IMG/VR virus record: IMGVR_UViG_2609459800_000001
From: a virus
Lineage: Duplodnaviria; Heunggongvirae; Uroviricota; Caudoviricetes
DNA: 64,000 nucleotides
Direction: 5' to 3' (one strand)
Positions 17,121 through 20,430 of the stretch are shown one piece after another. Position numbers and translations under genes: made by a program. Below the pieces are notes generated by a model. The model ran no database searches. It was given only the letters and a program-made list of their open reading frames with translations, and was not told where the DNA came from. The stretch's first letter is position 1, and every line of letters starts with the position of its first letter.

Positions 17121-17385
17121 GTTACAGGCGCGCATAGAGATTCTTGAAAAAGAGAATGCGAGTCTAAAAGGAATGCTGGCGCGGGCGGAAAGGGAATTAT
17201 CAGGCAAATTATTGCCAGAAGAACTGCCACCAGCAGATATACCAGATCGAGTGTCCCGGTGGATGAAGTCTTTTGGTTTGCCGTGGGAGGCTTTTTGGTG
17301 CTACGAGCATCGCAGATGGTGTGATGAACTTGATAGCAGTTTTCCCTACTTTGCGGAAGGGAATACTTGCCCTGAGTTGTATTAG
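17104..17385 (+). CDS. small coiled-coil protein (93 aa)
   Basis: ATG overlapping upstream gene end. Confidence 0.45.
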   Translation: MPTKAELQARIEILEKENASLKGMLARAERELSGKLLPEELPPADIPDRVSRWMKSFGLPWEAFWCYEHRRWCDELDSSFPYFAEGNTCPELY

Positions 17386-17403
17386 CTCAGATTTAACCTG
17401 ACA
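17381..17403. repeat. left 23-bp inverted repeat bounding the AT-rich cassette
   Basis: ATTAGCTCAGATTTAACCTGACA; reverse complement of 19556-19578 at 20/23. Confidence 0.45.
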
Positions 17404-17990
17404 CAGCTACGGCACAGTTCTAAACCTAATCTGACAGGCCGCTTTGTGCCAAAAGCGGGCATTGGGCGTTGTGGTAAATGCCTGATAATTTCTTCTTTTA
17501 CTAGCACAAGCCGCTGGATAATTGCCATGTTTCCAGCTTAAGTAAATCAAGAACAACTCGCGTACTGGCTGTATAAAGTTTGCCGGACGCAAATTTATTG
17601 ATTTCAGAAAAACCTGTTGAAATAGAGGTATATCAGCGTTAGTTTGATGTGAGTAAAGATCAGGAAAGAAGGTAGAAAAATGTTCCACTTGCGGGCAAAA
17701 AATCCTTCTATTAAATTGTTAAGGCTTTATGAAGATCGTACATTACGAATCGAATTCACCATGGGTAGGGAACATGAAATGTCCAAACCCTAAGTGCAGG
17801 AGGAATGACTCCTGCTTGATTCGGGATAGGTTGTACTCGCATGAAGTATGTATTGGCTCTAAACCCAAATACTGGTGGCGTTTGGTCACAAATACCTTAA
17901 CAAGTTTAGGTATGGGACGCTCCTAACGTCGCGCCCCTGCTAAAAGCGTTAGCTGTTCTCTAGCCTTCAACCAGATAAGGAAATAATCGT

Positions 17991-19421
17991 ATGAGTTCAG
18001 AATTGATTGCAAAACCTGGAACAGGGGTACTTTCCACAGATACAACAAAATTTGAAGGATATTTATCCTATCTTGGTTTGCCGACCGAAAATATAATTGC
18101 CTCTCTCCCTGAGCGCCAAATTATTGAAAAAAACCTCCCCACATTCATAGATTCTTTACCTGTTGAGGTAAAAAGAGATGCTCGATATTTATCAAAGTTC
18201 GTTGCTGGTGCGGCTATAGGACTATTTGATGCATCGTTAAATTATGTTTGGAATGAAGTTGTACTGAATTTAAGGGAAAAAGTAGTAGTTTATGGCCTCG
18301 ATATGTTCTTTGATGCTGCAGTTGGAGGAGGACGTAGAGAGCTTTATTCTACCGAAGAAGATCTTTCTGGTTTAAAAGACAACACCCTTATTAATACTTG
18401 CCGAAAACTTGAATTAATATCTGACGTTGTTTACACCAAGCTCAATCATATATTGACTATGAGGAATGACATTGGTGCTTCGCACCCAAATTCATACTCC
18501 ATAAATGCTTTTGAACTTCTTGGCTGGCTCCAAACATGCGTTCAAGATATTTTGAACGACAAACCGTCCGCGTCTGCCATACAAATAAAATCATTCCTTG
18601 AGAATCTAAAAAGATCCACTGATGTTCTTGATGAAGCCACAATTCATAGCATGGAAAGACCTTTGAATGATCTGTCGCTTCAGAATACAGACAATCTACT
18701 CAATAGTATTTTCGGCATATATACAGCTGACTCAACAGGAAATGTTGTCAGAAAAAATATCGCTCTTTTTGCTCCGCATATCTGGAATAAAAGCAGTGAT
18801 AACGTAAAATACAAGCTCGGTGTGACGCTAGACGGATACAAGAACAATCTTCACAACGAGAAACATGCTTTAGGTATTGAGTTTTTTACGTTTTGTGATG
18901 GTAATCGTTATCAATCATTAGACTCTAGAATTATATCACTGGACGGCCATGCCGACGATCTCTTAGAGGCTAGGTATGCTTGGGATAACTTTTATAATGA
19001 ACCCCCTCATATGCGGAAGATTCTTTCGTATTTAAAGACTGAAAATGACATACCTTTAGAGAGGGTTCATAAGCTTATAAAAACAGTTTTGATTTGCCGT
19101 GTTGGTAAAGGAATACCATATAATACTGGTGTTTCTCCGGCGGGACGACCTTTGTATGATCAGTTTTTTGGCATGCTTGGCGATCAAAACATTATCAATA
19201 CAGTTATAGCAATGCACTCTAATGAAGTGCGAGTGAATTTAGACAACAAATACTGCCAGCAACATATGGTAAGCGTTTTGACTTTGTTAAGAGCCAATGC
19301 TCGTAGCGAAAGAATTCAAGAAATTATAGATTTTTTGATCGCCAACCAAACGATTCTCCATAAAGTACACAACGATAAGAGATATAGAGATCTAACTAAA
19401 AATCACATCAGTTTTGGCTAA
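17991..19421 (+). CDS. 476-aa protein with Rx6H (HEPN-like) motif; candidate abortive-infection/defence effector
   Basis: R158-NDIGAS-H165; AT-rich coding; RBS AGGAAA upstream; ~600-bp ORF-free leader. Confidence 0.55.
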   Translation: MSSELIAKPGTGVLSTDTTKFEGYLSYLGLPTENIIASLPERQIIEKNLPTFIDSLPVEVKRDARYLSKFVAGAAIGLFDASLNYVWNEVVLNLREKVVVYGLDMFFDAAVGGGRRELYSTEEDLSGLKDNTLINTCRKLELISDVVYTKLNHILTMRNDIGASHPNSYSINAFELLGWLQTCVQDILNDKPSASAIQIKSFLENLKRSTDVLDEATIHSMERPLNDLSLQNTDNLLNSIFGIYTADSTGNVVRKNIALFAPHIWNKSSDNVKYKLGVTLDGYKNNLHNEKHALGIEFFTFCDGNRYQSLDSRIISLDGHADDLLEARYAWDNFYNEPPHMRKILSYLKTENDIPLERVHKLIKTVLICRVGKGIPYNTGVSPAGRPLYDQFFGMLGDQNIINTVIAMHSNEVRVNLDNKYCQQHMVSVLTLLRANARSERIQEIIDFLIANQTILHKVHNDKRYRDLTKNHISFG

Positions 19422-19555
19422 CAAAGCGCTGCACACGGACTAAATTAAGCTTCGCTCACTGGGGCGGGCGACAGCCCGTCCCTTAACCAAACGTTAATGT
19501 CCGCTTCTCGCTCAAAGCAGACTGTCAGATTTGATTGTGTGCTGCCAGTGAAAAC

Positions 19556-19578
19556 TGTCAGATCAAGTCTGAGCTAAT
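19556..19578. repeat. right 23-bp inverted repeat bounding the AT-rich cassette
   Basis: TGTCAGATCAAGTCTGAGCTAAT. Confidence 0.45.
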
Positions 19579-19603
19579 ACACCTGAGTGTAGGAGGTAGC
19601 GCG

Positions 19604-19864
19604 ATGTTTCGTCCTCGTCCAATACCGCCGAAACTAACTAATGGCTATCAGCCGAATACTCCAGAAATACAAGGGAGCGAGGGGCTTAAACCACCACCAG
19701 CACCACGTATTCCGCCTGTAGCAAGGAACGTATCATTACGACGAGAGTTAATATTAGCCTTGTCGCCCATTCTGGCTGCCCGCCAGGATTGGGTAAGTAA
19801 TGATGAACTGGCAGAAAAAATCACATCGCTGGTGGATAAAATTATGGATAAAGCTGATATCTGA
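19604..19864 (+). CDS. Pro-rich small protein (86 aa)
   Basis: ATG 6 nt after GGAGGT. Confidence 0.45.
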   Translation: MFRPRPIPPKLTNGYQPNTPEIQGSEGLKPPPAPRIPPVARNVSLRRELILALSPILAARQDWVSNDELAEKITSLVDKIMDKADI

Positions 19865-19876
19865 TCACCATGCTAA

Positions 19877-19905
19877 AATCCCCTCAATTCACAGAGGGGA
19901 TTTTT
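19877..19905 (+). terminator. hairpin (possible terminator)
   Basis: AATCCCCTC-aattcaca-GAGGGGATT then TTTTGT. Confidence 0.4.
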
Positions 19906-19909
19906 GTAT

Positions 19910-20176
19910 ATGTTGCATAGAGTTTTATGGAAATGCGGTATTGTCGGCGCGATGCTGGCTATATCTGGGTGTGCGATGGTGCAATACAATGACGGCGAAA
20001 AGGTAAGCATCCAGTCAGATGGCTGGTATGGACTGGATAGTCTGCAAAAAACCGCAGATAAAGCCTGTCAGCAATATGGGAAGTCTAAAGCTGTATATCA
20101 GCATAGCGCGAACGCTAACCCTCATCTTGCGCCCGGTTCGGGTGTTCAGAATACCATCTGGAAATGTGAGCCTTAA
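19910..20176 (+). CDS. lipoprotein (88 aa)
   Basis: Signal peptide with lipobox LAISGC. Confidence 0.55.
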
Positions 20177-20178
20177 AC

Positions 20179-20430
20179 ATGAGCGACTGGAATATTGCAG
20201 CTAAAAGTCAGGAAGAACGGGATAAGGTTAACGTTGATCTGGCTGCCAGCGGTGTGGCGTACAAAGAGCGATTGAACATACCTGTCATAGCGGAACAGGT
20301 GGTCCGCGAGCAACCGGAGAACCTGCGCACCTATTTCATGGAACGGCTACGGCACTACCGACAGTTAAGCCTCCAGTTGCCAAAAGGGAGCGATCCGGTG
20401 TATCAGAAAGAGGATGCGTCAAAAAAATAA
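20179..20430 (+). CDS. hot: DNA polymerase III theta-subunit homolog
   Basis: [33 protein letters not shown] aligns with E. coli HolE. Confidence 0.85.

Follow-up and report, generated by a model that had tools for sequence, protein, structure and literature searches.

A candidate HEPN abortive-infection gene on a mobile cassette with transposon-like ends in a P1-like phage-plasmid

How did a solitary, AT-rich gene come to lie in the backbone of a P1-like phage-plasmid, and what does it do there? The question arises from a 64,000-nucleotide stretch of DNA (here, the window) from IMG/VR virus record IMGVR_UViG_2609459800_000001 (Caudoviricetes), in which a pmgV-like gene, hot, humD, and phd/doc follow the P1 gene order. 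A discrete insertion of 2,204 bp (window 17378-19581) separates the pmgV-like gene from those that lead to hot, and it carries a gene for a 476-amino-acid (aa) protein. This insertion is a transposition-type insertion of a non-autonomous mobile cassette. We favor, with modest confidence, the reading that its cargo is a single-protein HEPN abortive-infection defense, a function proposed from sequence comparison and structure modeling.

The insertion left its footprint intact. A 7-bp sequence, CCTGAGT, occurs once in each of two P1-like plasmids with an empty site, pF1273-3 and p28Eco12 (loci L018 and L019), and twice in the window, directly flanking the element in the alignment. We found these plasmids by searching with the right flank; their match starts exactly at 19582, and their empty site reads ...GCCCTGAGT joined directly to GTAGGAGG... 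(also given as ...CTTGCCCTGAGT joined to GTAGGAGGTAGCGCGATG...). The element begins TGTATTAGCTCAG and ends CTGAGCTAATACA, giving it TG...CA termini. Such termini, long terminal inverted repeats, and a 7-bp target duplication make up a transposition-type footprint, as left by DDE transposons. No transposase or recombinase is encoded within 17378-19581.

A sequence-only reading of this DNA had described the segment as an acquired cassette, more AT-rich than its backbone, at a place where P1 carries small upf genes. All three points agree with our data. GC content is 0.396 across 17378-19581 and 0.375 in the open reading frame (ORF), against 0.459 and 0.485 in the 3-kb flanks. The cassette is absent from P1, RCS47, and all phage records searched, and it is polymorphic among P1 and P1-like phage-plasmids, with the uninterrupted site of pF1273-3 and p28Eco12 as the other state. 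Synteny with RCS47 and P1 breaks at 17373 and resumes at 20191, an interval in which reference P1 has upfM/N/O. The interval itself is variable across P1-like elements, since RCS47 has a reverse-strand 116-aa ORF where P1 has upfM/N/O; thus, the cassette landed in an already variable region. Beside it, an 86-aa ORF (19604-19864) and a 90-aa lipoprotein-like ORF (19904-20176) are common to the window and pF1273-3.

The features of the element lie as follows, in window coordinates and with the strand as plus or minus.

17371-17377, no strand: left copy of the target-site duplication, CCTGAGT, from alignment to the empty sites
17378-17466, plus: A-end arm, with terminus TGTATTAGCTCAG (17378-17390), CTGACA boxes (17398-17403 and 17431-17436), and an inner A-type site
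17437-17460, plus: A-type site of ~24 bp, GGCCGCTT-TGTGCCA-AAAGCGGGC, in which a spacer separates two inverted half-sites; candidate core site for recombination
17467-17717, plus: cargo leader, without a family match
17718-17954, plus: class 1 integron gene cassette relic, 83-91% identical to locus L010, including a 65-aa ORF (17729-17926)
17991-19421, plus: 476-aa cargo gene, with ATG start and ribosome-binding site AAGGAAA at 17977-17983
18168-18560, plus: predicted N-terminal HEPN-fold domain, about residues 60-190 (model and fold search)
18462-18485, plus: codons for R158-N-D-I-G-A-S-H165 (Rx6H motif), conserved in the family
about residues 200-476 of the cargo protein, plus: predicted C-terminal alpha-solenoid (model and fold search)
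19461-19482, plus: GC-rich stem-loop GGGGCGGGC-GACA-GCCCGTCCC, 40 nt past the stop codon, without a T-run
19493-19581, minus: B-end arm, with terminus CTGAGCTAATACA (19569-19581), TGTCAG boxes (19523-19528 and 19556-19561), and an inner B-type site
19499-19522, minus: B-type inner site GTCCGCTT-CTCGCTC-AAAGCAGAC, within the B arm
19582-19588, no strand: right copy of the target-site duplication, CCTGAGT; homology to the empty-site plasmids resumes exactly at 19582

The terminal inverted repeats are 13-bp perfect termini inside arms of ~89 bp. An arm profile matches 17378-17466 on the plus strand (E = 1.8e-25) and 19581-19493 on the minus strand (E = 5.1e-25), with no third match in 64 kb; a repeat search pairs 32 nt at 84% complementarity (17372-17403 with 19556-19587) and 41 nt at 80% (17423-17463 with 19496-19536). 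The 23-bp inverted repeats that the sequence-only reading took as the bounds of the segment do exist, but they are only the outer tip of these arms, and the true ends are 17378 and 19581. Its positions for the CTGTCAGAT motif were right (TGTCAG at 19523 and 19556, CTGACA at 17431), and there is an additional copy at 17398 that it missed.

Homologs of the cargo protein are numerous: we found 1,197 at E ≤ 1e-3, nearly all of ~476 aa and all annotated as hypothetical, with 579 representatives at 50% clustering. Clustered at 90% identity, the family still forms >1,100 groups, and its range extends from Enterobacteriaceae to Vibrio, Pseudomonas, and Bdellovibrio; identity to the window protein is 100% in Klebsiella and E. 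coli (407 member sequences), 89% in Aeromonas and Pseudomonas, and falls to 65% through Vibrio, Shewanella, Halomonas, Methylovulum, and Bdellovibrio. The earlier suggestion that the gene is undescribed is consistent with searches of Pfam, NCBIfam, and PADLOC (PADLOC-DB v2.0.0, defense catalogues of 2023, 0 families at E ≤ 1) and with sequence and profile searches of PDB, none of which matched the 476-aa protein; its sole PHROG match, phrog_27609, is of unknown function. A 45%-identical relative, P0328, carries a precomputed Pfam tag (PF27235.1) that Pfam searches of P0328 and of the window protein did not reproduce.

The motif R158-NDIGAS-H165, which the sequence-only reading had singled out as a HEPN signature, is present as described and is invariant in the family: M157, R158, N159, and H165 do not vary in 74 sequences, to ~35% domain identity, and neither do D80, N84, and W87. 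In 52 representatives at 21-51% identity, R158, N159, and H165 are still ≥90% conserved. A fold search with the whole protein was set aside for identifying the N-terminal domain, because generic HEAT/ARM solenoids dominate its results; we therefore remodeled this domain alone (predicted local distance difference test [pLDDT] score, 86.6; predicted template modeling score, 0.81). Similarity to known HEPN structures, which the earlier reading had anticipated, did appear: the top Foldseek match is 2hsb, with a probability of 0.97 and E-values that are not significant (best, 0.27). Another fold search, in which 2hsb also appears, matches TTHA0636, sacsin HEPN, SO_3166 toxin, HI0074, and TT1696, followed at lower rank by other HEPN toxins, AbiA, HepS, Csm6, RnlA, and LsoA. 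The HEPN superfamily was reportedly defined by Anantharaman et al. in 2013 by an all-alpha up-down helical bundle and an Rx4-6H motif; the N-domain model is such a bundle, and R158-NDIGAS-H165 is such a motif. From the model we infer that the N-terminal domain has a HEPN fold, with R158 and H165 as predicted active-site residues. The C-terminal ~300 residues, which the sequence-only reading matched to nothing, form a confident alpha-solenoid in the full-length model and fold search.

What the arms carry elsewhere bears on what this cargo might do. Of 5,426 complete E. coli genomes, 1,988 have between 1 and 4 copies of the arm. It is also present in 95 phage records, which comprise Stx phages as well as P2-like phages of E. 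coli, Yersinia, and Klebsiella; in the P2-like phages it lies at the 3' end of gene G. The arm family flanks variable, mostly anti-phage cargos in P2-like phages, other prophages, and chromosomal islands. We assembled a set of siblings from 32 IMG/VR loci with an exact-terminus match, whose paired arms define elements of 0.8-5.7 kb. The 38 unique arms align as two types, A and B, and every element has one of each. They are conserved over ~88 bp, which include a 14-bp terminus, a pair of CTGACA boxes spaced by ~33 bp, and the inner palindromic site; this conservation ends abruptly at the cargo. Flanking repeats are perfect (7/7) in L025 and L048 (CATAAAT), L040 (CCTGAGG), and L041 (ATTAAAT) and match at 6/7 positions in L027, L022, L034, and L029; the target-site duplications thus differ from site to site. 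At one insertion site with the CATAAAT duplication, three IMG/VR contigs with the same flanks hold a 362-aa unknown (L025), a cyclase plus four-transmembrane (4TM) effector of the CBASS type (L027), and a 756-aa unknown (L048), which argues that cargo is exchanged while the carrier stays put.

Many sibling cargos are recognizable defense genes. ORF1 of P2-EC30 is PD-T7-3 (E = 3.5e-168); others are a PD-T4-3-like GIY-YIG protein, a PD-T7-1-like protein, the CBASS cyclase with its 4TM effector, SIR2+HerA, a 553-aa reverse transcriptase (RT), SLATT+RT, an HNH protein, and several unknowns. The PD systems are said to have been validated experimentally by Vassallo et al. in 2022. The defense-type role that the sequence-only reading had proposed for the cargo gains support from this company, that is, from elements with the same arms that hold PD-T7-3, PD-T4-3-like, PD-T7-1-like, CBASS, SIR2+HerA, and RT systems. 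Sets of dynamin-family and RdcB-like genes (with or without patatin) also lie beside arm or site sequences (L056, 9961-13205; E. coli Nissle 1917, L017, 1931-5217); in strain RS571 such a set adjoins the small recombinase discussed below, and it may be another cargo type.

Parts of this structure had been annotated before. GenBank record AJ512676, the "Z-region" of P2-EC30, labels homologous sequences as "left inverted repeat" and "repeat_region" around an ORF, and AJ512680 and AJ512681 are annotated likewise. The A arm is homologous to the "left inverted repeat," 34 nt of the B arm are 100% identical to the P2-EC30 right repeat, and all four arms of the window and P2-EC30 align over ~90-100 bp. 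The P2 Z-region inserts thus share homologous arms on both sides and the same layout of arm, AT-rich cargo, and arm, with the defense gene PD-T7-3 as cargo in P2-EC30; they differ in having a P2-like rather than a P1-like backbone and unrelated cargo proteins. We tried P2-EC30 ORF1 as a homolog of the 476-aa protein and rejected it, as BLASTP finds no similarity; only the flanks are shared. The TG...CA termini, 7-bp duplication, A/B asymmetry, and associated recombinase carry no annotation in the P2 Z-region records, and we found no literature on them. A 2004 paper, reportedly by Nilsson, Karlsson, and Haggard-Ljungquist (Mol Biol Evol 21:1), is said to propose site-specific recombination in its title. 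The sequence-only reading recognized neither the repeats as transposon-like ends with a target-site duplication nor this 2004 P2 annotation.

Outside Enterobacteriaceae, the cargo gene turns up in quite different settings. In Aeromonas it stands alone after the trp operon; the Vibrio copies are lone insertions or immediately follow a P4-type integrase; and the copy in a Shewanella-type prophage has regulatory genes on one side and lysis genes on the other. A 53%-identical relative (65 member sequences) occupies a defective P2-like prophage of E. coli (L008, 6001-7437, and L009), between ogr and a truncated gpD, and L008 has a partial arm just upstream of it (5911-5957). Each of these relatives is an accessory gene that stands by itself in a mobile setting, be it a prophage, an integrase island, or a P2-like remnant, and no non-enterobacterial copy is flanked by the A- and B-type sites of the arms. 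Judged from these sequence comparisons, the gene is older than its carrier. In Vibrio fluvialis and V. parahaemolyticus (L012, L013, and L052-L055), it lies beside the P4-type integrase on short contigs of ~4.5 kb, together with 348-aa and 120-aa unknowns; these loci may be a small integrative element or satellite with the gene at its edge.

How might such a protein defend its host? In the mechanism we propose, the solenoid domain would sense a phage product or infection cue and thereby activate the HEPN RNase; as in other HEPN nucleases, the protein would probably change its oligomeric state and so complete a composite R/H active site. Cleavage of tRNA, rRNA, or mRNA would then arrest translation before the invading phage finishes its cycle, and this arrest would protect both the population of lysogens and the P1-like element in which the gene resides. 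The whole element would have been inserted by an enzyme acting in trans, and the cargo between the inner A and B sites could be swapped by a small tyrosine recombinase acting there. A parallel is offered by HepS, a single HEPN-domain abortive-infection protein encoded in Salmonella prophage Gifsy-1: on sensing a tail-tip protein of a phage, it cleaves tRNAs in their anticodon loops (PMC13043305). HepS is ~218 aa and essentially a HEPN domain, whereas the cargo protein has an additional ~280-aa alpha-solenoid, and the two have no detectable sequence similarity.

Several observations weigh against this picture. The cargo protein falls into no curated HEPN family of Pfam, NCBIfam, or PADLOC; one of the 52 distant members gives a weak match to DUF4145 (E = 0.007); the N-terminal half has a pLDDT of 55-70 in the full-length model; and the Foldseek E-values are those given above. 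No transposase was found in this or the sibling cargos, including the longer elements L034, L030, L045, and L024, and no enzyme that could account for the repeats and duplication was found elsewhere; nor does the window contain a homolog of the small recombinase (best tblastn E = 0.85). Some sibling cargos (a TauE exporter, a histidine phosphatase, and a protein resembling the major facilitator superfamily) look nondefensive.

The same facts admit other explanations. Many HEPN proteins are toxins of HEPN-MNT pairs, 5yep, 7bxo, and 7ae2 are among the structural matches, and phd/doc lies nearby in the window; the gene could then be a selfish addiction or toxin module, its HEPN RNase killing cells that lose the partner antitoxin. 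We consider this unlikely. The element has no MNT or other antitoxin gene; its other ORF is a deleted integron relic, and in Aeromonas, Vibrio, and Shewanella the gene stands alone, without this relic. A large C-terminal solenoid is typical of sensor domains rather than of minimal toxin-antitoxin toxins. A noncatalytic HEPN-fold domain that binds a ligand or protein, in a protein that serves the phage-plasmid by anti-defense, envelope superinfection exclusion, or regulation, would accord with the non-nuclease HEPN folds among the top structural neighbors (sacsin, MtlR-type regulators, and Rsd) and with the absence of any nuclease family profile match; the sequence-only reading had also allowed for anti-defense. 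Such a role seems improbable given that the R-N-x5-H signature is invariant over >70% sequence divergence, as expected of catalytic residues, that sibling carriers hold defense systems and not anti-defense genes, and that the gene also resides in chromosomal islands and conjugative plasmids, besides phages.

Two further alternatives concern the carrier. The upstream segment 17718-17954 is an integron cassette bounded exactly by G/TT cores, the ORF starts 36 nt past the second core, and many homologs come from Vibrio, Shewanella, Aeromonas, and Pseudomonas, genera rich in chromosomal integrons. Could the ORF itself be an ordinary integron gene cassette, and the flanking repeats attC-type sites? 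We think this very unlikely: the sequence 3' of the ORF (19408-19505) folds no better than shuffles (bottom strand, z = -1.2), and the GTTAATG that might pass for its core proves, in the arm alignment, to be the B arm's inner edge, two results that led us to reject an attC site there; none of the Vibrio, Aeromonas, and Shewanella copies examined lies in a cassette array, and attC recombination does not produce TG...CA termini with a target-site duplication. We give hardly any credence to the proposal that the inverted repeats are conserved hotspot flanks promoting homologous recombination without transposition. It would account for the 34-nt stretch that is identical between the window and P2-EC30 and for the three cargos found in one site with the same flanks (L025, L027, and L048). 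The arms, however, arrived together with the cargo and made a perfect 7-bp target duplication, and these duplications differ between sites; because P1, RCS47, and the empty-site plasmids pF1273-3 and p28Eco12 lack arm sequence, there was no homology to recombine with. A HEPN abortive-infection gene on a transposed cassette is the reading we retain. Its cargo family is large, well conserved, and unannotated, bears a HEPN nuclease signature, and is located where phages keep defense genes, which makes the cargo a concrete, clonable candidate for a single-protein abortive-infection system.

The inner palindromes of the arms add a second kind of boundary. Copies of the cargo that are 99% identical over window ~17441-19512/22 occur in 49 plasmids (IncF and others; Klebsiella, Shigella, E. 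coli, and Enterobacter) and 48 E. coli genomes. Their identity breaks inside the inner palindromes, with the left breakpoint within the A-type site (17437-17460), and the outer arms are absent or different there. Directly downstream of the cargo in E. coli PE15 and plasmid p720632_72 is a gene for a 200-aa tyrosine recombinase (PF00589 is its only Pfam match), and an 87%-identical gene lies within the arm-bounded element L024. This gene is present in 773 of 5,426 E. coli genomes and is bracketed alike in ~20 distinct enterobacterial contexts (IMG/VR). Upstream come a variable left half-site, TCGCTC, and then a constant ATAAGGGAC and 5' untranslated region (UTR); downstream come a constant GCAGCC-CTGTGCCA, a variable right half-site, and variable genes. 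Distant recombinase loci (60-64% identity) keep an element ...GGCCAGAAGCGGA... downstream. The recombinase is not IntI or Xer and has no PDB relative by sequence. An inverted repeat of 11 bp, CTCAAATCTCC...GGAGATTTGAG, is conserved in its 5' UTR (L002, 8100-8148; L056-L058 and L182-L195) and overlaps the ribosome-binding site; it could be a regulatory hairpin or operator.

Sites of both types, A (GTCCGCT-YTGTGCCARR-AGCGGAC) and B (with a TGAGCGA/TCGCTCA spacer), separate gene modules in plasmids and islands. They lie at module boundaries in L002, L003, L056, L057, and L058, and ~125 kb of module loci contain 11 sites, whereas shuffled sequence yields 3 in 4 Mb. Exact matches to the 24-nt A-type site GTCCGCTYTGTGCCARRAGCGGAC occur in at least 120 stretches of species-representative genomes; the site is spread through the Enterobacterales, several per genome, and occurs beyond them in Hyphomicrobiales, Rhizobium, Bradyrhizobium, Nitrosospira, and Oceanospirillales, Alpha- and Betaproteobacteria included. 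In Pantoea the A-type sites form arrays, for example at 3566, 4804, and 7699 in Pantoea ananatis L128. Flanks of A-type sites are unrelated, so that conservation is limited to the site itself. The halves of the inner sites do not covary, and we therefore rejected the idea that they are maintained as hairpins. From their sequence arrangement we infer that the small recombinase uses A and B sites, as duplex DNA, for its core sites and that hybrid sites are the traces of earlier exchanges; the bracketing of the recombinase gene by A and B sites in the form of hybrids suggests integron-like cassette exchange. A recombinase gene is nearby in 1 of 80 site-bearing loci, which weakens a one-to-one link between site and recombinase; since the gene is absent from the window as well, action in trans would be required. 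Two observations on site arrangement may be added. B-type sites of Pantoea and Erwinia often have an A-type site ~20 nt further on, an arrangement that resembles an empty recombinase slot. In the Klebsiella pneumoniae IncF plasmid pC280_1 (L003), A/B-type sites also delimit a DUF4145 plus DNA helicase pair and an hxsABCD (His-Xaa-Ser) operon, beside the HEPN cargo, and this array is interrupted by IS5, IS30, and IS3.

Tentatively, and with somewhat more doubt than confidence, we propose that the arms, inner A/B sites, and 200-aa recombinase make up an unrecognized two-layer gene-shuttling system of Enterobacterales and beyond, with the 476-aa HEPN protein as one new defense cargo. One layer would be an integron-like platform in which the recombinase swaps modules between A-type and B-type core sites; because the A and B spacers differ, exchange would be directional, like recombinase-mediated cassette exchange. 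In the other layer, the A and B sites would be mounted in a transposon-like carrier, with terminal inverted repeats and target-site duplication, that inserts into new replicons. If correct, this would supply a missing mechanism for moving anti-phage genes between elements without shared homology, namely P2-like phages, P1-like phage-plasmids, conjugative plasmids, and chromosomal islands. A recent survey of P2/P4 hotspots found that defense genes shuttle from these hotspots to plasmids, phage-plasmids, and cryptic islands and called the mechanism puzzling, as homology is lacking; it does not mention the arms' repeats, the target-site duplication, or the recombinase (bioRxiv 10.64898/2026.02.27.708500). 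Our literature searches for the accessions and site sequences returned nothing relevant, and further literature may describe parts of the system. The window shows one transfer with its footprints intact (empty site, 7-bp target duplication, and transposon-like ends), and the link between these ends and short sites that bracket a small tyrosine recombinase yields testable predictions about the enzymes and sequences that move defense cassettes.

Among known mobile elements, the carrier can be compared with mobile insertion cassettes (MICs), non-autonomous insertion sequence (IS) derivatives with passenger genes, such as MIC231 of Bacillus cereus. Like them, it has terminal inverted repeats, a target-site duplication, a passenger gene, no transposase, and presumably mobilization in trans. 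Unlike those of MICs, its arms are long (~89 bp), asymmetric, and composed of several boxes, which brings them closer to the ends of Tn7, Mu, Tn552, or IS21-type elements; we identified no cognate IS or transposase, and the arms contain an inner recombinase-type site that is also a cassette boundary outside arms. To our knowledge, the arms match no ERIC/REP sequence and no named IS end. Integrons and the pdif modules of Acinetobacter (Xer sites) likewise use short conserved sites to delimit exchangeable modules. The likeness to integrons extends to a recombinase gene with a fixed proximal and a variable distal half-site, as with attI next to intI, to site arrays, and to sites that far outnumber recombinase genes, as in attC clusters without an integrase. 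The differences from integron and Xer systems are a 200-aa recombinase that belongs to neither class, ~24-bp duplex-type palindromes in place of folded attC hairpins, two site types that differ in their spacers and lie on opposite sides of the recombinase gene, and a platform that can ride in an element with terminal inverted repeats and target-site duplication. Our assessment is that the protein would belong among the HEPN abortive-infection-type defenses and the carrier would unite a mobile insertion cassette with a system of integron-like sites.

The region upstream of the cargo gene has a history of its own. The sequence-only reading described it as a leader free of ORFs, which is not the case: it contains the 65-aa ORF (17729-17926) of the integron cassette relic. 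Core sites GTTAAGG (17718) and GTTAGCT (17948) mark the exact limits of the relic's homology, and the relic alone in the element has the G/TT boundary. It corresponds to a cassette located between dfrA1 and qacEdelta1 that encodes a zinc-ribbon protein, which we take to be orfC/gcuC; an in-frame internal deletion of ~275 bp between two CCAAACCCAAAGTG-like repeats left the 65-aa ORF. Most simply read, the relic is an integron cassette that entered the leader through a secondary GTT site, and the cargo may have passed through an integron earlier. The leader accompanies the ORF in 50 E. coli genomes, and the ~550 bp between the A site and the ORF travel with the gene in Enterobacteriaceae only. 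We rejected the leader as an intrinsic partner of the gene because homology to the Aeromonas copy begins only at 17975, 16 nt before the ATG. Rfam has no match at E ≤ 1 in the leader or arms, and the plus strand of the leader has no strong sigma-70 match or otherwise convincing promoter; transcription may start in the leader or read through from the pmgV-like operon. At the 3' end of the gene, a terminator scan does not call the stem-loop at 19461-19482; it is paired in the top-strand fold (z = -2.6) and is a possible terminator or stabilizer.

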